Part shown: positions 4,609 through 48,426 of the stretch, piece by piece
Layout: each line of letters begins with the position of its first letter
Numbering within the stretch: the first letter of the stretch is position 1
Origin: a virus
UHGV virus genome: UHGV-0310767
Strand: one strand, 5' to 3'
DNA: 64,000 nucleotides
Made by a program: the position numbers and the translations under genes
The notes under the pieces: model-generated
What the model was told of the DNA's origin: nothing
The model's database searches: none
What the model saw: the letters and a program-made list of their open reading frames with translations, nothing else

Positions 4609-5091
4609 TTAATCAAAAAATTGCTTTCGATATTTATGTTTTTTCTTACTATTATTATAGCGTTTTATTAAATTTTGTACATCTTCTTCTCTTTTTTTCT
4701 TTTCTTTTTTTATTTCTTCTTTTTCTAAATATTGTTTTATATTTCGATTATACATAGAAATAATTTTTTTCATTATTTCTATAGACAATATATCATCTAC
4801 GAAATATTCACGTAAAGAATAGTCATTCATATTTAAACAATAAATATCAAAAAGGCGTTCTAAAGTACATTGTAATCCATAATTATTATCTACGGTATTA
4901 TATATAGTTTCCCTAATTAATTTCATATTTCCATTTTGTTTAAAATAAATAAAAGAAGAATTAAGGTAAATAATGGGAAATTTTTCTAATGTGAAAAATA
5001 CATTCCCTTTAGATTTTTCAAGAGTTAATCTATAAATATGTTTAAATTTAGACAACTCTACTTCTTTTTCTTTAGGTATAAATACCGCCAT
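4609..5091 (-). CDS. hypothetical protein, MAVF(V/I)P family (paralog of 2026..2478)
   Basis: 160 aa; shared N-terminus MAVFIPK...LSKFK.IY.LTLEK...LEKFPI.Y.NS. Confidence 0.45.
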   Translation of the reverse strand: MAVFIPKEKEVELSKFKHIYRLTLEKSKGNVFFTLEKFPIIYLNSSFIYFKQNGNMKLIRETIYNTVDNNYGLQCTLERLFDIYCLNMNDYSLREYFVDDILSIEIMKKIISMYNRNIKQYLEKEEIKKEKKKREEDVQNLIKRYNNSKKKHKYRKQFFD

Positions 5092-5102
5092 AATTTTTCT
5101 CC

Positions 5103-6200
5103 TTATTTTAATCTTATTAAAACAACACCTGAACCTCCTGTAGAAATATATCCTTGATAATTTCCACCAGCACCACCGCCCGTATTAGTTCCTCCGTTAC
5201 CAGCTTGCCAACTGCCATTAGAACCTCCACCGCCGCCCCCGGCACCGCCGCCACCAGGGCTTCCTCCACTTCTTCCAAAACCACCACCACCACCACCGCC
5301 TGAATATATAGTTCCATTAGATTCCCCAAACGCTCTTGTAGTAGAACCTTGACCTAGGCCACCACCACCAGAACCACCTTGTCTACCTGCTGAATTAAAT
5401 CTAGGGTTTCCATCTCCACCATTAGCACTACATAATGTACTACTTCCTTTTTTTACAGTGGTAGTTCCTCCTTTATTACCTCCATATCCACCTCCACCAA
5501 TAGTTATAGATAACACATCTTTTTCAGCTACAGTTATATTATTAACAGTTTTGGTATATCCTGCACCGCCACCACCATTAGCATAATAACTAGAATCCCC
5601 ATATTCACTACCACCACCTCCGCCAACACAGAAAACATCTATTTTAGAATATCCTGCTGGAATTGTGTAATTAGAAGTTGCTTTGATAGTAATTATCTGA
5701 GAACTACCTGTATTTACTGTAGCTTTTAATTGTGTTCCTAAGATTTCCCCATTGGATGTTACACAATAAGAGTAAACAATGAAGTAATACATAGTATCAA
5801 GAGAAGGAAGGGATAAAGCTGTTGTAGATATCCCTCCACTCTCTTGTGATGTTCCTACTCCCTTGTACCCTTCTATACCTGTATCTGGTGTAGGATAGGA
5901 ACCTGTTTGATATCGGATATATACTCCACTATAAGGTCTACCTAGTTCTTCAATAGGATTAGTCCATTGGACTGTAATATTTCTACCACTAGAAACAGAC
6001 AAAATTAAATTGCTTACATTTCCTGGCTCTAGGGTGCCTGTTAGTGAATTTTTGGGGTCTACAGTGTAAAACGTAGTACCTTTGGTTACATGGTTTTTTA
6101 CAGCATCACCTGTCAACTGTAAGGAACCAGTCTCTACATCGTCTGTACTGGCCCCTACGAATTTGTAACCATCCATAACAACGGATGAATCGGCTGTCAA
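5103..6200 (-). CDS. glycine-rich protein with FN3-like domain (fibre-like)
   Basis: 365 aa; ITVQWTNP...YIRY FN3-like segment then long GGGGxG tracts; C-terminus GGSGVVLIRLK. Confidence 0.5.
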   Translation of the reverse strand: MTADSSVVMDGYKFVGASTDDVETGSLQLTGDAVKNHVTKGTTFYTVDPKNSLTGTLEPGNVSNLILSVSSGRNITVQWTNPIEELGRPYSGVYIRYQTGSYPTPDTGIEGYKGVGTSQESGGISTTALSLPSLDTMYYFIVYSYCVTSNGEILGTQLKATVNTGSSQIITIKATSNYTIPAGYSKIDVFCVGGGGGSEYGDSSYYANGGGGAGYTKTVNNITVAEKDVLSITIGGGGYGGNKGGTTTVKKGSSTLCSANGGDGNPRFNSAGRQGGSGGGGLGQGSTTRAFGESNGTIYSGGGGGGGFGRSGGSPGGGGAGGGGGGSNGSWQAGNGGTNTGGGAGGNYQGYISTGGSGVVLIRLK

Positions 6201-11305: not shown

Positions 11306-11472
11306 ACCCCATAAAGGGGTGTGATTTTAGATTTTGAAAGCGGGACGCACACCGGCAGAGAGAGAAGCGGTTTAGTACTGCCATAATTTAACCAATTCCT
11401 TTCTTTATTTTTTTGATTGACAAGTTACATTTTATAAAAATAATCCCTCCACCAAACGGCAGAGAGATTAAT

Positions 11473-18753: not shown

Positions 18754-18930
18754 TTATTCTTTATTTACTTTTCTGACTTTTATATCCTTTAAAAAATCAC
18801 CAAAAGTTGCATAATATTCCCTTGCGCCTTTTAACCAAATAAGATATTTAGCTTTAGCATCTGATTCCGCTTCTATAAAATTTCCTTGCAGATGTTCTAC
18901 TGAGTTTGATTCATAATAATAAGTATTCAT
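18754..18930 (-). CDS. small hypothetical protein (58 aa)
   Basis: not in ORF track (under 60 aa); GAAGGAG RBS; preceded by consensus promoter. Confidence 0.4.
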   Translation of the reverse strand: MNTYYYESNSVEHLQGNFIEAESDAKAKYLIWLKGAREYYATFGDFLKDIKVRKVNKE

Positions 18931-19000
18931 TTTTTATCTCCTTCATAAAAAAATATTTTTTGATACTATCTTTAAAAATCCTATTTATAGATTTTATTAT

Positions 19001-19029
19001 ATTATAACATAAAAATAAAAAATTGTAAA
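19001..19029 (-). promoter_or_regulatory. sigma-A promoter (TTTACA-N17-TATAAT on minus strand)
   Basis: plus tgtaaa 19024-19029, attata 19001-19006, 17-nt spacer. Confidence 0.5.
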
Positions 19030-19047
19030 GAATAAAATAAATTTTTC

Positions 19048-19067
19048 CTTCAATTCGTAAAGTAAAA
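19048..19067 (+). repeat. conserved motif CTTCAATTCGTAAAGTAAAA, copy 2
   Basis: identical to copies at 4427 and 34674. Confidence 0.6.
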
Positions 19068-19812
19068 AAATAAAACAAAAAACGGCCGGGAATTTTTAAT
19101 ATCGCCATTACCGTTTTTTGTTTTATGTATTTTCGCCTGGAAATTTTCTTTATCGCCATTCTGGGATTTTTAGATTGCCCCAATTTACATACAAATTATT
19201 TATACAATTATTTACAAAAAATATTTTTCAAATTTAAATTGTAAGAATTTTCTGACTTTTAAAAATGGTCATAAAATTTCTGCTGTCTCGGTCCATCTTG
19301 TTTGCATCCTGTTATAAACTCGTAAAAAGCGTTTCTAGCCACTTTACATATGCGCTTGATATTTTATCCATCTTCACTATAAAGTGGCTAGAATTAGCTT
19401 ATAATGCGTTATACGGCATGTTAACATAATACTATGTGGTAAGGAGGATATAACGCCCCTCATTTTACATTGTCGGACATTTCCTCATGAACACTGTTAA
19501 AACTGGTCTTACTTGCTTTTACCGGGTTTTAACAACCTTCCTACATCGTCTAAACCTCTCAGAATCGCCATAGACGGCCTAAACACTCTTAAGCTTATAT
19601 AACTACCTTAAAGCCTTTAAACTCGACTCTCATTGATTCTGATAATCTCTAGTAAATTAATAGGAATGAATTTCAATTCATGACATACAGACTTTTACAC
19701 TTTACTTTATTAAATTATCAATGTCACATAAATAAAAATAAGTAACCCCTAAAGCTTTTACACTTTAAAGATTGCCTATACCTATTTAACGGTTTTATAG
19801 TGGCTATTTAAT

Positions 19813-19947
19813 TCAATGTTCCCATGTCAACCTTTTAATACCATTCACCCATATTTCTATATTACTACCTTCTCTAAACCACTCTACAGCGGTTTTATGG
19901 ACTTCTGTACATTCCCCTGTGGTAGTGTTCATGTAATATTTATTCAT
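19813..19947 (-). CDS. small hypothetical protein (44 aa)
   Basis: AAGGAG RBS; ATG at 19945-19947 (revcomp); TGA stop. Confidence 0.3.
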   Translation of the reverse strand: MNKYYMNTTTGECTEVHKTAVEWFREGSNIEIWVNGIKRLTWEH

Positions 19948-20183
19948 TTGTTGTTTACTCCTTTCTTCTCTTTCCTATAATGATATCATACATTTCATAT
20001 AAAGTCAAGTCTGAATATTTGCTATTTTAAACTGTAATTATCTGATAATTAAAAAATTGTACCTTCCATGTTTGCACAATCAAGTTTGCATTCCACACCA
20101 TACATTATGTAACTATTTAATTATGTAATAATTATATCATCATTTTATGAATCTGTCAATTACTTTTTTATATATTTTCATAA

Positions 20184-20214
20184 TAAAAACCTTCCATTTC
20201 TGGAAGGTTTTAAA
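20184..20214. terminator. bidirectional intrinsic terminator (aaccttcca / tggaaggtt)
   Basis: 9-bp stem, 4-nt loop, A-run before and T-run after. Confidence 0.5.
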
Positions 20215-20395
20215 AACTTAAACTTAATATGCATATGAAATTTTGTTCATAATAGCCCCGTACCGTGTCCCCTCTGGATTATATTTGAACATGGTATCAG
20301 TTGTAATAGCTGCCGGGTGGCGTTTCCCAGGTCTTTCTAAACAATGCTTTATACCTCCTCATACAAGAATACCCCGCACGGCGGCGGGGCTTCTT

Positions 20396-34370: not shown

Positions 34371-34598
34371 TTATTTAATTCCCTTCCTTTCTTTTTTATA
34401 TTTTATATATTTTTCATATATTTCATTCATTTGTTTCATAATATTTTCATCGTTAAAATCTTTTTCAGATAATTGTGCTCTACTTCTTCCTACAGCACAT
34501 GGAGAAACTTTATATTCTTTATCAAATAAATTAAAATCGGATATTACTGTACATTCTCCCATACTGTTCTCAAATTTACAGCCACTTCCATAACACAT
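34371..34598 (-). CDS. hypothetical protein
   Basis: 75 aa; TAGGAGG RBS; downstream of promoter 34628-34656. Confidence 0.4.
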   Translation of the reverse strand: MCYGSGCKFENSMGECTVISDFNLFDKEYKVSPCAVGRSRAQLSEKDFNDENIMKQMNEIYEKYIKYKKERKGIK

Positions 34599-34627
34599 AT
34601 ATTGTTCCTCCTAAAGATTATATTTAT

Positions 34628-34656
34628 ACTATATCATATAAATTATAATATGTCAA
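34628..34656 (-). promoter_or_regulatory. sigma-A promoter (TTGACA-N17-TATAGT on minus strand)
   Basis: plus tgtcaa 34651-34656, actata 34628-34633. Confidence 0.5.
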
Positions 34657-34673
34657 TAGATTTATTTTATTTT

Positions 34674-34694
34674 CTTCAATTCGTAAAGTAAAAT
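34674..34694 (+). repeat. conserved 21-nt motif, copy 3
   Basis: CTTCAATTCGTAAAGTAAAAT identical to copy 1. Confidence 0.6.
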
Positions 34695-34784
34695 AACTTC
34701 CCAGCACAAACCGGAATCACGTAACAAAAAATATTTTTGTATATGAAACTATTACTGTGAGTTCGTATATGCGAATTTTAGGGG

Positions 34785-34813
34785 TTGACAAGAGGGCCGA
34801 GAGGGGGTATAAA
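34785..34813 (+). promoter_or_regulatory. consensus sigma-A promoter on plus strand (TTGACA-N17-TATAAA) in a minus-strand gene block
   Basis: ttgaca 34785-34790, 17-nt GC-rich spacer, tataaa 34808-34813. Confidence 0.5.
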
Positions 34814-34819
34814 TGAGAA

Positions 34820-35037
34820 AAGCCAACCCCTCGTTGCCTGAGAGGACCTCTGTTGTGAGAGGAACAGCTTTTACTCACTACCTAGTTATCGTCTAGGCCA
34901 TGAACAAAAGTGGGAACTAATATCTTCCCATTTTCCAAACCTAAAGCGTTGAATAGTTTTTAATCATCTATTTTTTATTTATAGGGATTTCTCCCCTATG
35001 AAACAGAAAACCTCCCAATTACTGGGAGGTTTTTAAT
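34820..35037 (+). ncRNA. candidate small RNA (~220 nt) with own promoter and terminator, GC-rich relative to surroundings
   Basis: no ORF with RBS; GAGAGG repeats; internal hairpin atagggatttctcccctat; ends at terminator 35007-35035. Confidence 0.3.
35007..35035. terminator. bidirectional intrinsic terminator (aacctccca / tgggaggtt, then TTTTT)
   Basis: 9-bp GC-rich stem, 5-nt loop, T-run. Confidence 0.55.
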
Positions 35038-35225
35038 TTTATTAATATTTCTTCCATGTCTAAAATTTTTTCAATATTTCCACTACAACATGGAGGTTCA
35101 ATAGGTGGCCCACCATAACAAGTCATTGCATGAGGACAATCTTCATCGTAAATACAATATTTACATATATCTTCTGGATTTTCTTCTACCCAATTTAAAA
35201 CTTTCTTTCTATCATTTTCATTCAT
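35019..35225 (-). CDS. hypothetical Cys-rich small protein
   Basis: 68 aa; CKYCIYDEDCPH...CCSGN. Confidence 0.35.
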   Translation of the reverse strand: MNENDRKKVLNWVEENPEDICKYCIYDEDCPHAMTCYGGPPIEPPCCSGNIEKILDMEEILIKLKTSQ

Positions 35226-35241
35226 TAATTCACCTTATTGT

Positions 35242-35553
35242 TTACTGTAACTTTCCACAATATTTGCAATATTTATCAAGAATATTAATTGTGGATTTAC
35301 ATGAGTTACATTTTCTTTTACCACCAGCTTCATGTAGAATAATAGGAGAAACAGGTTCAATTCTAAATTGAGAAGATTCCCATTCTTTTCCAAACCCGGC
35401 AGAAGCAATTTTAACAGATGGTCTACTTGTATCAGATTTTCCATCCAAAGTAATTAATACTTCTTTGTCTTTAATATTTCCAGTATACATTTGGCTAAAT
35501 TCTTTTAAGATAATAGCCCTGTCAATTTGTTTTTGTAACTCTCCCAATGTCAT
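35242..35553 (-). CDS. hypothetical protein with C-terminal zinc-ribbon
   Basis: 103 aa; CNSCKS...CKYCGK. Confidence 0.35.
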   Translation of the reverse strand: MTLGELQKQIDRAIILKEFSQMYTGNIKDKEVLITLDGKSDTSRPSVKIASAGFGKEWESSQFRIEPVSPIILHEAGGKRKCNSCKSTINILDKYCKYCGKLQ

Positions 35554-35558
35554 AAATA

Positions 35559-36281
35559 TTATTCCTCCTTTCTTTCAAGGGTAATAAAATGACTTACTTC
35601 TTCTTCGTAGGGCAAAGTTTCAAAAAAGATAGCTAAGTCTCTTAATTCTTTCTGTTTGTGGTTTCTTCTTGCAAAATAAAAGGCTCTTGCAGTTTGTGCA
35701 GAACAAGTGTAACTTGAAGTAAAATTAAAACTCTGGGGTAAATCCTGTATAATTTGCCTAAATATATCTTCCCTTTCTTCTGAATCTGTAGGTAAAGAAT
35801 TAAATTCTTCGATAAGATTATTCAAATGTAAAAGAGTTGTTTCACGGTAGATATTAGATATTACATTTCCCTTTGAATCATCATAACTAAAATCATCAAT
35901 AGTCAAAGGACGGCTTACAATCTTATGCATACGACTGGTTGAATTTTTTACAGTAGCAACTTTATAGGTATCTATGTCCCACCATGCTGTCATAGGGGCA
36001 GTAAGCAAAAAAGAAAGCTGTACCTGTCTAAGCCATTTTCCATGGTCTGTTCCTGCCAGTATTAAGTTTTCTGCCAGTTTCTTATCTTTGGGGCCAATAA
36101 AAACATCTAAGACTTTATGAAAACTTTTTACCTGATTAAGTTTGATTATTTTAGTAAATTGGTTATAACGATTATAAACATAGCATTCACTATCTGATAA
36201 ATGATTGCTATTCATTGGCAATCTCATACCATATAAAGCATTTGCTAATCCAGATACTTCTAATTTTTCAACTTTTATCAT
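35559..36281 (-). CDS. ThyX-like (flavin-dependent thymidylate synthase fold) protein with degenerate RHR motif
   Basis: 240 aa; aligns to ThyX HG...F.F..AP...W.RHRIAS....SGR as HGKW..SFLLTAPMTAWW.TYKVAT....STSR; RH replaced by TY. Confidence 0.3.
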   Translation of the reverse strand: MIKVEKLEVSGLANALYGMRLPMNSNHLSDSECYVYNRYNQFTKIIKLNQVKSFHKVLDVFIGPKDKKLAENLILAGTDHGKWLRQVQLSFLLTAPMTAWWDIDTYKVATVKNSTSRMHKIVSRPLTIDDFSYDDSKGNVISNIYRETTLLHLNNLIEEFNSLPTDSEEREDIFRQIIQDLPQSFNFTSSYTCSAQTARAFYFARRNHKQKELRDLAIFFETLPYEEEVSHFITLERKEE

Positions 36282-39146: not shown

Positions 39147-41642
39147 ATGCAAAATAGTAGAAGAAAAATATTTAAGATTTCTACAGAGAGATTAGCTTCT
39201 AACAATTGGGATATTAAGTTAGACCAAAAATTAGCTGTAAGGTTAGATGAATTAGTAGATTTATTTGATAATCAGTCTTTTAGGTTGTTGGATATTATTT
39301 CCAAAGCTTACAAATCCAATCTTACAGATAAAGTGCTGGCAGTAGAAATATCTAAGAAAAAAGATTATGCCAGGGCTACTTCTCCAAAAGGCATTTATGT
39401 AAATGGTTTTAATTTCCAATGGTTTGTAGGAACTACAGGAGGATTGAAAAATGAAACTATTTTATTTGTTCGTTCTGACCTTTTAGGAGAATTAGACAAA
39501 AGATGTGAATGCGGCAGAAAAAAAGATTATAAACTGGTTCCTGCAAAGTATGAAGCTTATAAATCTCTTACTTGTTCTGCATCTTTAGAAATTGTGGAAC
39601 CTAGAGATGTACTTGTGGTTTCTGATTGTTTTGTTGATTTTTATGACAGTGTAATCAATATAGATGATACTAACAATGATGAACCAGAAGTAACAATATT
39701 GGAAAATATTTTACTTAAAAATAATGGCAGTGATGGTTTAAATTTATGTACGCCAGAATATATGCAGAGAGTAGCAGAAAAGCTTAAGTTAGATTATATT
39801 CCTGCTGGTGGTTGTTTAAGAAATGCGTGGCTTAAAGGAATGCTGTATGTGTTCGATATTCTTGATTTTGCTGAGAAAATAGCCCATACTTACGAAGTGA
39901 AAGATATTTGGGGGCATATTCATGATATTCGTAATGTGGATATGATTATTACAGAATCCAGTTTAAAGATTTGGGATAATTATGATAGTTGGGAAGATTA
40001 TCATAGCAATTATATAAAAAATGGTTATCGTTTTGCCATGACTAAAGTTACACCTAAAGTTTTGGATGATGTAAGAGAAATAAATTATCAGTACTTACAA
40101 TCTTACGAATTGACAGATGAAGATATTAAAGAGTTGGCTAAACCTACTGTTGATTGGCTTAAGCAATCTTTGACTGGCGATTATGAACAAACTTTAAAAT
40201 TTCTGGGAATAAGTGAAAAAACAAAGAGTAATGATTATGCACAAGCATTATATCTTAATCCAGAAATGATGAAAGACCCTTATGTAATTGACAGAATTAA
40301 TAAAATGATAAAGAAAAAAATCAATAATGCTAAGATTGGTAAATTATTGGTTAATGGAAATTATCAGCTTGTAAGTGGCGACCCTTATGCTTTAATGCAA
40401 CATGTTTTTGGGTTAGAAGTTACAGGTCTTTTAGAAGCAAAAGAAGTTTATTCCAAATATTGGAATGATAAAGAAGATGCAGAAGAATTAGTATGTTTTC
40501 GTAGTCCTATGACAAGTCATAACAATATTCGTAAAATGAAAAGAATTAATAATGATACTGTGAATTATTGGTATCGTCATATGGATACTATATTTATTAT
40601 TAACAACAAAGATACGTTTTGTATGGCTATGAATGGTTGCGATTTTGATGGCGATGCTATTTATTCTACAAATAATAAAGTTTTATTGAGAAAGTATGTA
40701 GAATTATTAGCTATTCAGTGTGTTCAGCGTAAAGCCCAAAAACAAATTGTTACTAGGTCTATGATAAAAAAGAGCAATTACAAAGGATTGGGAAATGGGG
40801 TTGGTAAAATTACCAACGATGTATCCAGTATGATTGATATTCTCTTTGGGTTACAAAAGGGTACAATTGAGTACGAGACACTTTACAAACGTATTCTATG
40901 TGGTCAGCTATTCCAACAGAACGAATTGGATAAGTTGAAGGGAATCATTGCAAAAGATATGCCTAAAAACTGGTATATGAAAAATCATTGCCAAACAGAA
41001 TTAGATTTAGCTATTGTAGCTGATAAAAAGCCTTATTATTTTATGTATAATTATCCTGTCATTAAAAGAGATTATGATAATTACATTAAACATACAAGAG
41101 AAAAATGTTTAATGATATATGGATGTACTGTGGAAGAATTGAAAAATAAAGAAAATTTAACAAAAGAAGAAGAAGAATTTTTATATTGGTATAATGTTCA
41201 AATGCCAGTTAATTGTTCTCCATCTACAATGAATCGTTTATGTTGGTATATTGAATCTGAGTTTAATGGATATGTTACTCAACTAAAGAATCAAAATTTT
41301 GATTATTCTTTTTTAAAGAGTGATAAAGTTATTCGATATCCAAAAGCAAAAAAAGAAGAAATTGAAAAATTAGAAAAAGAATATGTACGCAGAATTAAAA
41401 ACTTTAAAATAATTGCTAAAGAAAATAATTTATCTGCCGAAGAAGCAAATAAAAAGACAGAAGTATTACAGCAGGAATTTAGAGATGAAGCAATAAAGAT
41501 TTGTTCTAATAAGTGGCAGTTAATGAATATAGTATTAGATTTATGCTATGGAAAGAATAAGAACAAATATTTTTGTTGGGCTGTTATTGGAGATTTAATA
41601 ATTGAAAAATTAAAAGAAGATGGAGAGAAAGAAAATGAATAA
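39147..41642 (+). CDS. YonO-like single-subunit two-barrel (DPBB) DNA-dependent RNA polymerase
   Basis: 831 aa (YonO about 840 aa); AMNGCDFDGDAIY carries the beta-prime-type DFDGD catalytic motif; first gene of late arm. Confidence 0.55.
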   Translation: MQNSRRKIFKISTERLASNNWDIKLDQKLAVRLDELVDLFDNQSFRLLDIISKAYKSNLTDKVLAVEISKKKDYARATSPKGIYVNGFNFQWFVGTTGGLKNETILFVRSDLLGELDKRCECGRKKDYKLVPAKYEAYKSLTCSASLEIVEPRDVLVVSDCFVDFYDSVINIDDTNNDEPEVTILENILLKNNGSDGLNLCTPEYMQRVAEKLKLDYIPAGGCLRNAWLKGMLYVFDILDFAEKIAHTYEVKDIWGHIHDIRNVDMIITESSLKIWDNYDSWEDYHSNYIKNGYRFAMTKVTPKVLDDVREINYQYLQSYELTDEDIKELAKPTVDWLKQSLTGDYEQTLKFLGISEKTKSNDYAQALYLNPEMMKDPYVIDRINKMIKKKINNAKIGKLLVNGNYQLVSGDPYALMQHVFGLEVTGLLEAKEVYSKYWNDKEDAEELVCFRSPMTSHNNIRKMKRINNDTVNYWYRHMDTIFIINNKDTFCMAMNGCDFDGDAIYSTNNKVLLRKYVELLAIQCVQRKAQKQIVTRSMIKKSNYKGLGNGVGKITNDVSSMIDILFGLQKGTIEYETLYKRILCGQLFQQNELDKLKGIIAKDMPKNWYMKNHCQTELDLAIVADKKPYYFMYNYPVIKRDYDNYIKHTREKCLMIYGCTVEELKNKENLTKEEEEFLYWYNVQMPVNCSPSTMNRLCWYIESEFNGYVTQLKNQNFDYSFLKSDKVIRYPKAKKEEIEKLEKEYVRRIKNFKIIAKENNLSAEEANKKTEVLQQEFRDEAIKICSNKWQLMNIVLDLCYGKNKNKYFCWAVIGDLIIEKLKEDGEKENE

Positions 41643-46277: not shown

Positions 46278-47036
46278 TTGGAACGTGCAACTTTATTAAT
46301 ATATGAAGAATGCAGACTTTTGAAGAAAACTATAATTGATAGTGTTTTCCAAAAAATGGCACATCCACGTCAAGCTAAATTCTTAACTTTACCAGAATAT
46401 CAAGATGAAGATGGAAAACCACTGTCTCGATGGTTGGAGGAATGTAAATCAGTTTATATTACTTCTGCAAGATTTAAGATTGAATGGTTTTGGACAGAAT
46501 TTAAAAAAGTAGTTCAACAATGTATGATATCTTCAAAACATAAGTATAATTTCTTTGCTGGAAATATATTCTTGGCTATATTGTTTGGTTTGAAAACATG
46601 GCAGGATTATTACCATGCTAAAGAATTTGATGGTGAAATAGACCATAAAACAGAGGATTTGAATGAAATGATAGGAGAAGCCGATGGGGCATTCTTCTCT
46701 TTGGAATCGTTTAAAAAGAATCAAACTATTATTACTGCTTTTAAACCTCCTACTTTATTGGATTTATATTCTGATGTAGATTTAGGAAATAGGGTTAAGA
46801 AAGAAAATGAAAAACGTTTGATTTTTATTGACTACGCTTTTGCGAATACTACATCAAAATCTAAGAACGATAACAGTGTTATTGGTTGTATGTCTGTTAT
46901 TTTTAGAGATGATGGAAAAACTTTAAGAGAAATAGATTATATAGGTACTCACCCAGCAGGAGATAGTATAGGTTTCAACTTGAAAATTAGAGAATTTTTC
47001 TTTGATTATCAAGCTGACTATATTGTATTGGATTAA
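46278..47036 (+). CDS. terL: terminase large subunit, exon 2 (Walker B LLIYEE, C-motif ITSAR, start of nuclease domain IFIDYAF); 5' boundary approximate
   Basis: 252-aa ORF segment between two introns. Confidence 0.55.
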   Translation: MERATLLIYEECRLLKKTIIDSVFQKMAHPRQAKFLTLPEYQDEDGKPLSRWLEECKSVYITSARFKIEWFWTEFKKVVQQCMISSKHKYNFFAGNIFLAILFGLKTWQDYYHAKEFDGEIDHKTEDLNEMIGEADGAFFSLESFKKNQTIITAFKPPTLLDLYSDVDLGNRVKKENEKRLIFIDYAFANTTSKSKNDNSVIGCMSVIFRDDGKTLREIDYIGTHPAGDSIGFNLKIREFFFDYQADYIVLD

Positions 47037-48426
47037 TTCTGAGGTCCACTTTTATGGTGACATAAAATGAATAAATGTGTTGAATTGCTGGAAACCCCTA
47101 AAGCCACATGAACCACAACGTAAGTATGAAATAAGACTAAGCGTGATGGTGACGAAAGTAGAAAGAATCATGTGGATGGCATAAGGTTAAATCCTAAGTG
47201 CTTTAAAATGGGCAATCAGCCGCCAAGCTCTGAATAGGAGAAGGTTCAACGACTATCCCGCAAGGGAGTACACTGCAAGCGATTGGCAGTGGAAGTGGCA
47301 CACATCTTATGAAATTAAGATGAAGATATAGTCTGCTCTATATGGAAACATATAGTATCTAACGTGTAGCGGCGTTTTCTTAACTTATAAAAAGTAAATA
47401 AGACAGAGGGTAGCTCCCTTTTCTTGTACTGCAATACAGGATTATTATTTACTTTTTATCATATCTTTTTGCAGAAAGGTTTAAGGTAGAAATTATGAAA
47501 ATTTGGGAAGTAAATTCTAGTAAGCGTTTTAGTTTTGGTTGTATTTATTTATGGACTAATCTTATTAATGGTAAACATTATGTTGGACAGACAGTTAATT
47601 TTTATCAACGTATTCAACGATATAAGAAAGGTTTAATTAATTCTTATATGAAAGAAGATATTGATAAATATGGTATGGAAAATTTTAAAGTTGAAATATT
47701 GGAAAAAAATAGAAGATATTTCAAATGAAGATTTTCTTACTGAAAGAGAGCAATATTGGATGGATTATTATCAGTCTTATGATTTAGAAAAAGGCTATAA
47801 TATATTTGATGTTGCTGGCAATGTCTGTTATTTAAAACGTAGTGATACTATTAAAGAAAGATTTTGTGGAGAAGGAAATGGAATGTATGGTAAACATCAT
47901 TCTGATGAATGGAAACAAAATCATTCTGATTGCGTAAAAGGTTTGTGGGAAAAAGAAGAATATAGAAAAGTTCAGACAGAAAGGATGCAAGGAGAAAATA
48001 ATCCTATGTATGGGGTATCTTTAGATGGTGAGAAAAATGGAATGTATGGTAAACATCATTCTGATGAAACCAAAAGAAAGATAGCTGAAAGTAAAATAGG
48101 GAAAACTCATGCACCTACTCATTTTAAAAGAGTGAGATGTGTTGAAACTGGAAAAATCTATAATAGTCAGAGTGAAGCCGCACAAGAGTATGGCATAACT
48201 CAGGCCGCAATCAGTGCAGTTTGTAAAGGTAAAAATAAGACAGCCAAGAAAATGCATTGGGAATTTGTAGACTAATCTCAAAAATAGTAATAGAAACAAT
48301 ACAAGACTTAGAAATGGTGGTGAAGTAAACTATAATGACCTTACTACAATTCTTGAACATCCACAAAGAGATGAAAAGCATTGGAATAGTCATGGTTTTA
48401 CAGTTTCTTATGAAGAAAGATTACAT
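47037..48426 (+). mobile_element. group I intron 2 in terL carrying a GIY-YIG homing endonuclease gene; boundaries approximate
   Basis: canonical R element ggttcaacgactatccc (47242-47258) and S element gaagatatagtc (47332-47343) upstream of the HEG. Confidence 0.6.
47495..48275 (+). CDS. GIY-YIG homing endonuclease with NUMOD3-like repeats, split by a +1 frameshift at an A7 tract (47703-47709); possible pseudogene
   Basis: ORF1 CIYLWTN...KHYVGQT...R GIY-YIG core; ORF2 carries the EDISNEDFLTEREQYWMDYY...GYN continuation and GxxNGMYGKHHS NUMOD3 repeats; an A6 tract would make a single ORF. Confidence 0.65.

Follow-up and report, generated by a model that had tools for sequence, protein, structure and literature searches.

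The classical short phage RNA is lambda OOP, which has its own promoter and terminator and is oriented against the surrounding operon. Phage PhiTE, in turn, is said to carry a pseudo-ToxI, a phage-borne antitoxin mimic reportedly described by Blower and coworkers in 2012. Skipping-rope RNA (RF02924) is a non-coding motif with a 3' terminator, an orphan in terms of function since 2017 (PMC5737381); in bacteria it is linked to genes for DUF3800 (Weinberg et al. 2017, PMC5737381), an RNase-H-fold domain which, according to later work, is often linked to mobile genetic elements and defence systems. In this work, we describe a locus at about 34.8 kb of the virus genome UHGV-0310767, of which a stretch of 64,000 nucleotides (the window) was analysed, and compare it with these systems. 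An earlier note, made from the letters of the window, had proposed that the locus encodes a small RNA (sRNA) on the plus strand, within a block of leftward genes.

The analysis supports this proposal, the promoter being conserved, the same cassette carrying skipping-rope RNA on the same strand in other phages, and no conserved open reading frame (ORF) being present. We conclude, with a probability of about 0.58, that the locus is a stand-alone, early-expressed, accessory non-coding RNA gene of about 215 nt, encoded on the plus strand and acting in trans; that the RNA is produced, and that it acts in trans, is what we infer from the features described below.

Promoter and terminator of the predicted transcript

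The predicted unit is delimited by the following features, given in window coordinates.

34776 to 34813, plus strand: promoter, TTTTAGGGG, with -35 TTGACA (34785-34790), a G-rich 17-nt spacer (34791-34807) and -10 TATAAA (34808-34813)
34820 to 35038, plus strand: predicted non-coding RNA of about 215-220 nt, its bounds set by the promoter and the terminator
35006 to 35035, either strand: bidirectional intrinsic terminator, hairpin AAAACCTCCCA-ATTAC-TGGGAGGTTTTT, with 12 pairs

The -35, the spacer and the -10 lie on the plus strand exactly where the earlier note had placed them. Its term "textbook" is overstated, the -10 being devoid of the highly conserved final T; for this reason the site at 34785-34813 was not listed by the promoter scan. 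Sites with a perfect -35 and at least five of the six -10 positions are about 8-fold more frequent in the window than in Markov-1 random sequences (16, against 2.1 +/- 1.5 expected), so that any single one of them is probably real.

The RNA would start about 7 nt past the -10 and is predicted to end within the terminator's U-tract. The strong intrinsic terminator reported at 35007-35035 was recovered as a hairpin at 35006-35035, scored by the terminator scan, along with its U-tract, on both strands (AAAACCTCCCA/TGGGAGGTTTT), and is 100% conserved in all window-type variants; within 33-37 kb, the scan listed six terminator-like sites where 1.5 would be expected. The terminator is common to a convergent 68-aa gene on the minus strand (35019-35225), whose last codons are overlapped for about 20 nt by the 3' end of the RNA. 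Since this part of the terminator is the only overlap with the gene, a cis-antisense mechanism of the OOP kind is unlikely.

GC content is 0.48-0.49 at 34750-34899, compared to 0.17-0.30 in the flanks and about 0.28 in the genome. Of the roughly 220 nt previously described as relatively GC-rich, the first 130 or so (about 34785-34930) are so, while positions 34935-34977 are AU-rich.

A promoter cassette with different RNA bodies

By megablast, the closest relative of the window is Enterocloster phage PMBT24 (OQ326496.2), with 98% identity; the CB457/CB473 phages of Enterocloster bolteae (CB phages) are more distant, with 84-87% identity. The phage appears to be PMBT24-like, virulent and Enterocloster-infecting. 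Among these relatives, individually denoted by L numbers, four RNA bodies are found behind the same promoter cassette: skipping-rope RNA, an array of type III (ToxI/antiQ-like) antitoxin repeats, a PMBT24-type body and the window-type body. Every allele has an intrinsic terminator of its own at its end. Neither the -35 nor the TTTTAGGGG stretch varies among the alleles, and a -10 is kept 17-18 nt away, in the form TATAAA, TAGAAT, TAAAAT or TATAAT; in L132, one extra G produces an 18-nt spacer. The promoter motif TTTTAGGGGTTGACA and about 90 nt upstream of the -35 are kept in phages with unrelated downstream sequence, and the upstream region is 76-82% conserved with respect to the CB phages, despite unrelated RNA bodies.

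In CB473P3 and CB457P2, the promoter TTGACA-18-TAGAAT is followed, after about 190 nt, by a full-length skipping-rope RNA in the same orientation, with 68.3 and 65.5 bits, respectively (the gathering score being 36.7 bits), and then by a terminator; the unit is convergent with nrdG. A similar arrangement, adjoining nrdG, is found in L274 (IMG/VR contig 3300023717_000001), with a 12/12 promoter with TG, about 290 nt, a skipping-rope RNA of 63.9 bits and a terminator. NrdG, the neighbour in CB phages, was considered as a DUF3800 protein and is not one. The nrdG-adjacent site, where others hold skipping-rope RNA, is occupied by a PMBT24-type body in L019, L271 and L272. In PMBT24 the cassette lies in the early region, yet a remnant of about 65 nt of the nrdG 3' end is found beside this copy; the nrdG locus of PMBT24 itself has no cassette.

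The antitoxin allele is found in L311 and L315, where the cassette promoter is followed by a CB-type leader, an internal promoter, 38-nt tandem repeats (TRF score 110) and a terminator. Behind the latter lies a frameshifted N-terminal fragment of ToxN/AbiQ (PF13958, 1e-14; PADLOC AbiQ, 4e-16), and on the other side an inverted second toxN, 5'-truncated exactly at a 17-mer described below. The array looks like a type III antitoxin RNA that has been retained in the absence of a functional toxin. The graveyard of type III toxin-antitoxin (TA) genes covers positions 1700-2410 in L311 and 1678-2620 in L315; a homology search with the ToxN fragment matched only the fragment itself.

Upstream of the promoter, the cassette contains three further features.

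34675 to 34691, plus strand: left-edge 17-mer TTCAATTCGTAAAGTAA, bounding the repeated terminator/promoter cassette
34699 to 34716, minus strand: terminator-like hairpin TTCCGGTTTGTGCTGGGA, then AGTTATTTTA, listed by the scan
34727 to 34780, no strand assigned: upstream conserved region, with a 12-bp palindrome AAAAATATTTTT (34727-34738) and two direct repeats TTYGTATATG

Four exact copies of TTCAATTCGTAAAGTAA are present in the window (4429, 19049, 33351 on the minus strand, and 34675), against 0.87 expected, and next to every copy lie a terminator hairpin and a leftward promoter of the sigma-A type. The 17-mer also borders the RNA cassette of PMBT24, of the CB phages and of L315. It is probably a recombination anchor for the cassette, marking the breakpoints of cargo exchange. 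The hairpin at 34699-34716, which pairs only with the help of G-U on the minus strand and has a clean hairpin as its counterpart at the equivalent position of other cassette copies, lies just upstream of a leftward promoter (34656-34628) and is predicted to insulate the leftward operon. The TTYGTATATG repeats, at 34736-34754 and 34762-34780, are 26 bp apart, lie between divergent promoters and are conserved in CB phages; along with the palindrome, they are possible regulator-binding or UP-element sites. A tandem duplication of about 101 nt of the upstream cassette (17-mer, hairpin and A/T palindrome), corresponding to window positions 34692-34784, is found in L130, L131, L132 and L134.

Two otherwise syntenic relatives, L133 and L135, do not contain the RNA locus, which must therefore be accessory. 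In L133 (ERZ27274981 k141_68317) it is replaced by an HTH_XRE/CI-like gene and a DDE_Tnp_1 transposase of an insertion sequence (IS), and in L135 by unrelated small genes. The site is a hotspot of variation.

A promoter followed by a GC-rich and then by an AT-rich segment (34935-34977), in a cassette which moves between 17-mer sites, might also be expected of an element acting at the DNA level, such as a transcription-activated replication origin, an R-loop primer site or a recombination hotspot. We regard this as very improbable: no iterons are present beyond a single 17-nt duplication, no GC-skew switch occurs at the locus, some otherwise syntenic phages lack it, and its alleles carry bona fide RNA genes.

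Coding potential and the PMBT24-type allele

According to the earlier note, no ORF preceded by a ribosome binding site (RBS) is found in the transcript. Formally two exist, starting at ATG 34814 and at GTG 34855, neither of them being conserved in relatives. The first (27 aa, GAGG-N8-ATG) overlaps the -10 and begins upstream of the inferred RNA start, and the second is 13 aa long. In relatives more than 92% identical, indels of 11 and 17 nt disrupt or alter the plus-strand frames: an 11-nt insertion just past the -10 in L136 and L138, and a 17-nt deletion in L148; the PMBT24 body also alters them. A plus-strand small protein, of 27 or 13 aa, is therefore hardly credible, notwithstanding the GAGG-type motif located 8-9 nt upstream of both starts, and is effectively refuted by the different frames found in these four relatives; protein-coding readings were rejected on these grounds. 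A conserved ORF was looked for on both strands among the locus variants, and none was found, including the conserved small ORF with an RBS which, according to the earlier note, would have spoken against an sRNA. On the minus strand, neither the window allele nor its variants feature an RBS-preceded ORF of at least 5 aa. In the PMBT24 record, five coding sequences deposited over the locus (WDQ45568-45572, record positions 4980-5699) are short, hypothetical and in inconsistent frames, and look spurious.

The PMBT24-type allele does contain a minus-strand ORF, encoding a basic 38-aa peptide, which is not hydrophobic, behind a strong Shine-Dalgarno (SD) sequence (AAGGAG-N7-ATG; positions 2769-2885 of PMBT24, L001). 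The ORF is intact in PMBT24 and L179, and frameshifted (A7 vs A8 run) in four of the six PMBT24-type copies. A minus-strand promoter, GTTTATTTTTGTCTAGTTGTATGCTATAAT, is predicted in this allele with a PhagePromoter score of 0.960, and antisense transcription may therefore take place there. Window-type and PMBT24-type RNAs have in common the promoter, the first 35 nt, which are identical and predicted to be accessible, and a hairpin close to the 3' end (hairpin E below), while their middle parts differ.

This likeness raises the question of whether the window RNA is a decaying remnant, in which promoter and terminator still fire and the body is a degenerate cargo without a present function, derived possibly from a PMBT24-type sense/antisense pair resembling a type I TA system and including the 38-aa basic peptide. 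The window-type body indeed resembles a shortened PMBT24-type one (ATGATTAAAAA, GGAAGAT and CCTAGACGA are in common), and the PMBT24-type ORF has both its SD sequence and a predicted promoter of its own. The body, moreover, has been changing more rapidly than the adjoining sequence and shows indels of 11, 17 and about 100 nt; the locus is dispensable in L133 and L135. Decay is nonetheless unlikely, because the window-type allele is widespread, occurring in many independent gut metagenome contigs, and is 100% identical across several independent metagenomes, and because promoter, 5' module and terminator are strictly conserved; the supposed ancestral peptide, in turn, is not hydrophobic and is frameshifted in most copies. 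Gut-metagenome contigs with identical flanking proteins define six distinct locus variants, with about 12 variable positions. The rapid change of the body, alongside a fully conserved terminator and identical copies in several metagenomes, is what an accessory locus with fast turnover would show, and fits an arms-race function and weak constraint equally well.

Comparison with known RNA families

The Rfam scan proposed in the earlier note was carried out, and the locus matches no family at gathering or permissive thresholds: none is found in 34550-35100 even at E<=10, weak hits all riding on the terminator. Neither the PMBT24-type body nor the whole PMBT24 genome matches Rfam, and ARAGORN finds neither a tRNA nor a tmRNA. 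Scored against the skipping-rope covariance model, the window stays below the gathering score throughout, and 34550-35100 gives no match at E<=10 either. A Rho-independent terminator follows the window RNA, which is not located in a 5' untranslated region (UTR), as is typical of skipping-rope RNA; these traits are generic and not diagnostic. DUF3800 was not matched in the scanned neighbours (34371-34598, 35019-35225, 35242-35553 and 35559-36281).

Tandem repeats of the type III antitoxin kind, of about 34-45 nt, were not found by TRF in 34690-35045, where a single 17-nt duplication is present, nor is there a ToxN/AbiQ gene on the same strand behind the terminator, the next genes lying on the opposite strand and containing no ToxN domain. 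The window allele has no small RBS-preceded ORF on the opposite strand of the usually hydrophobic kind expected of type I TA systems, and no same-strand downstream gene of which the RNA might be a riboswitch or 5' UTR leader. What is found corresponds to a generic stand-alone sRNA gene, with its own sigma-A-type promoter, an intrinsic terminator, an intergenic position and no conserved ORF. Among phage RNAs it falls into a familiar category, that of sRNA genes equipped with a promoter and a terminator of their own, and belongs to no described family.

Two further candidates were set aside. A mimic of CRISPR repeats, suggested by hairpin E followed by GAAAC, was dropped: the GAAAC is not kept in PMBT24, and a search of the locus gave no repeat array. 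A sponge for CsrA-type proteins was considered in view of about five GGA motifs, which, as judged by eye, do not clearly exceed chance expectation and are not kept in loop positions. Scans of viral contigs with a 15-mer of the promoter, and of metagenome contigs with a 16-mer, returned mostly chance matches, the queries being too short, and a 21-mer of hairpin D had no match in viral contigs; together, these scans added hardly any relevant locus to those already known.

Folding of the RNA body and choice of strand

Between the promoter and the terminator, the following elements are predicted.

34827 to 34845, plus strand: 5' hairpin A, CCCCUC / loop GUUGCCU / GAGAGG
34847 to 34862, plus strand: hairpin B, CCUCU / GUUGUG / AGAGG, which arose by the 17-nt duplication
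34868 to 34911, plus strand: long imperfect helix, with a CCUAG/CUAGG hairpin at its tip (34881-34897)
34907 to 34934, plus strand: hairpin D, AAAGUGGGAA / CUAAUAUC / UUCCCAUUUU
34935 to 34977, plus strand: AU-rich stretch, predicted single-stranded, with unpaired probabilities mostly of 0.6-0.9
34978 to 35002, plus strand: hairpin E, UAUAGGG / AUUUCUC / CCCUAUG

The plus-strand RNA (34820-35004) is predicted to fold with a minimum free energy (MFE) of -44.6 kcal/mol (z = -2.9). The GAGAGG repeats mentioned in the earlier note are indeed present, in three copies (34799, 34840 and 34857), the last two of which are due to the 17-nt duplication TGAGAGGA (34839 and 34856). Hairpin A, enclosed by the pairing of AAAAGC (34819-34824) with GCUUUU (34867-34872), is part of a 5' module 100% common to the PMBT24-type allele; in L136 and L138, where CCCCUC opposite GAGAGG is changed to UCUCUC, its pairing on the plus strand is kept or improved. 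The C-rich 5' end AAGCCAACCCC is conserved and predicted to be accessible. Hairpin B is absent from L148 and from the PMBT24-type allele. Hairpin D, the outer G-U pair of which becomes G-C in L129 and L136, is paired in all variants on the plus strand only. Hairpin E is common to the PMBT24-type allele and is replaced in L136, where an extra hairpin with a U-tract, recognized by eye and not listed by the scan, reads as a terminator on the plus strand only.

Several observations weigh against an RNA gene of the proposed kind. At the promoter, the -10 lacks the T at position 6, and the site is not among the PhagePromoter predictions for PMBT24 given in the PMBT24 paper and its supplement. The window RNA shares 85% identity with its L136 counterpart, compared to 95-98% for the flanking genes. 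The window RNA has neither tandem repeats nor similarity to the other cargos. A scan for RNA duplexes against both strands of the window gave no non-self outlier (best z about -4, in 8,528 windows), genome-collection scans with the cassette and with a 24-mer of the 5' module revealed no bacterial or prophage copy, and neither a host partner nor a bacterial homologue nor a target emerged. As for the fold, the covariation analysis in related phages suggested in the earlier note was run and does not support any structure, variation being little: the RNAalifold covariation term is +0.17 on the plus and +0.18 on the minus strand, with no compensatory pair in the core and about 12 variable positions. 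One-sided changes preserving a pair number five on the minus strand and two on the plus strand. The MFE is lower on the minus strand both for the window (-50.2 vs -44.6 kcal/mol; minus-strand z = -2.8) and for the PMBT24-type allele (-72.7 vs -58.2).

The last points bear on a different reading, in which the functional or structured RNA lies on the minus strand and the GC-rich stack of hairpins serves the leftward operon as a 3' UTR or a multi-terminator insulator, or else gives a 3'-derived sRNA. Transcription would enter it by reading through the hairpin at 35033-35007, and would end at 34845-34815, formed by hairpin A, which resembles a terminator when read on this strand, and a U-tract, or at 34716-34699. 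Besides the lower MFE and the slight excess of variant-compatible pairs, this is suggested by three terminator-like hairpins on the minus strand of the locus (34930-34911, 34845-34827 and 34716-34699), the first of which is also found in L136; by the long helix, in which 17 of 18 positions pair on the minus and 13 of 18 on the plus strand, the extra pairs being G-U, and where a G-U to A-U change fits the minus strand; and by the minus-strand promoter GTTTATTTTTGTCTAGTTGTATGCTATAAT kept in the PMBT24-type allele. The comparison of MFE values, however, also picks the wrong strand for skipping-rope RNA, used as an 80-nt positive control, and hence carries little weight. Moreover, the window allele has no minus-strand promoter downstream of the strong bidirectional terminator, the corresponding region being deleted, and the element conserved across alleles is the plus-strand promoter, followed in the known case by skipping-rope RNA on the same strand. 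A functional minus-strand RNA is accordingly quite unlikely. The RNA gene was assigned to the plus strand because of the conserved promoter, the orientation of the cargos, the lack of a minus-strand promoter in the window allele and the extra hairpin of L136.

Genomic setting and other sites in the window

Large ORFs are all leftward between 1 and 38.3 kb, and rightward from 39.1 kb on. The locus lies about 4 kb inside the leftward arm, which here contains small early genes and nucleotide-metabolism genes. The credible flanking ORFs (34371-34598 and 35019-35225) are both on the minus strand, bearing out the previous statement that all flanking genes are on the other strand; the first large plus-strand ORF is at 39147, and no plus-strand gene is found downstream of the locus. 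The label "transposase" given in PMBT24 to a 75-aa neighbour has no Pfam support.

Within the leftward block, further plus-strand sites with a perfect -35 and at least five of six -10 positions occur at 11417, 15236, 6494 and 37616. Those at 11417 and 15236 are intergenic, with no plus-strand ORF within 400 nt, and may represent further antisense or non-coding RNA units.

A region of about 1.3 kb (18930-20240) contains one credible small gene (44 aa, 19813-19947, minus strand) and is bounded by a 12/12 minus-strand promoter (20159-20131) and by a copy of the cassette 17-mer with its promoter (19049/19029). Positions 19130-19800 fold considerably better on the minus strand (-155 vs -119 kcal/mol; z = -3.3 vs -2.1). 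The region, which has no Rfam match and for which only tiny plus-strand ORFs are annotated in PMBT24, may be a long structured 3' UTR or a non-coding RNA.

The only Rfam match in the window is a group I intron (RF00028, 96.6 bits, 47025-47355, plus strand), which appears to interrupt the gene for the terminase large subunit (ORFs 46356-47036 and 47670-48275). The PMBT24 terminase is uninterrupted and has no intron match.

Proposed mechanism and significance

In the mechanism we propose for the plus-strand RNA gene, TTGACA-17-TATAAA would be recognized by the sigma-A RNA polymerase of the host, transcription beginning near 34820 and ending in the bidirectional terminator (35006-35035). This terminator on one side, and the minus-strand hairpin at 34699-34716 on the other, would insulate the unit from the leftward operons. 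Its promoter would belong to a mobile RNA expression cassette, recombining at the repeated 17-mer, in which cargo RNAs alternate.

As to function, we tentatively favour, at clearly less than even odds within this explanation, a protein-binding decoy or antitoxin-like RNA which would neutralise a host abortive-infection nuclease, by analogy with the other cargos, which include a solitary antitoxin array and the DUF3800-linked skipping-rope RNA. Alternatively, the RNA might be a base-pairing sRNA, acting through its conserved and accessible C-rich 5' end. A broader and rather unlikely extension is that the cassette is a recombination-shuffled anti-defence slot, all cargos of which are solitary decoys or antitoxin mimics directed early in infection against host abortive-infection nucleases. 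If this were true, the window RNA would represent a new class of phage anti-defence RNA, and the allelic series the first functional handle on skipping-rope RNA.

Small RNAs encoded by virulent phages infecting gut anaerobes are almost unstudied. More interesting than the RNA itself is the promoter-anchored exchange of cargos, including skipping-rope RNA and an orphan antitoxin. This allelic context leads to the testable hypothesis that early phage RNAs may counter host defence, for which natural allele swaps and natural deletions (L133 and L135) are available from relatives.

Relation to known systems

Among known systems, type I TA pairs of Firmicutes and their prophages resemble the PMBT24-type allele, in which convergent units fully overlap; its peptide differs, however, in being basic and, in most copies, frameshifted, and the window allele has no such ORF, SD sequence or minus-strand promoter. 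Lambda OOP is matched by the window unit in having its own promoter and terminator and an orientation opposed to the surrounding genes. It differs in that the overlap with a gene is limited to the shared terminator, about 20 nt at 35019-35038.

With type III antitoxins (ToxI/antiQ), the link is provided by the L311/L315 cassette, which carries a solitary array flanked by dead ToxN/AbiQ fragments, that is, a phage RNA without a working toxin. The window RNA is likewise accessory, non-coding and bounded by a promoter and a terminator, but has no tandem repeats, no adjoining toxin remnant and no similarity to the L311 repeats. Skipping-rope RNA, finally, forms a unit like that of the window, with the same promoter cassette, the same strand, an intrinsic terminator and a convergent arrangement with leftward genes; the window RNA differs from it in having no alignable sequence beyond the promoter, and in being located in the early region rather than beside nrdG.

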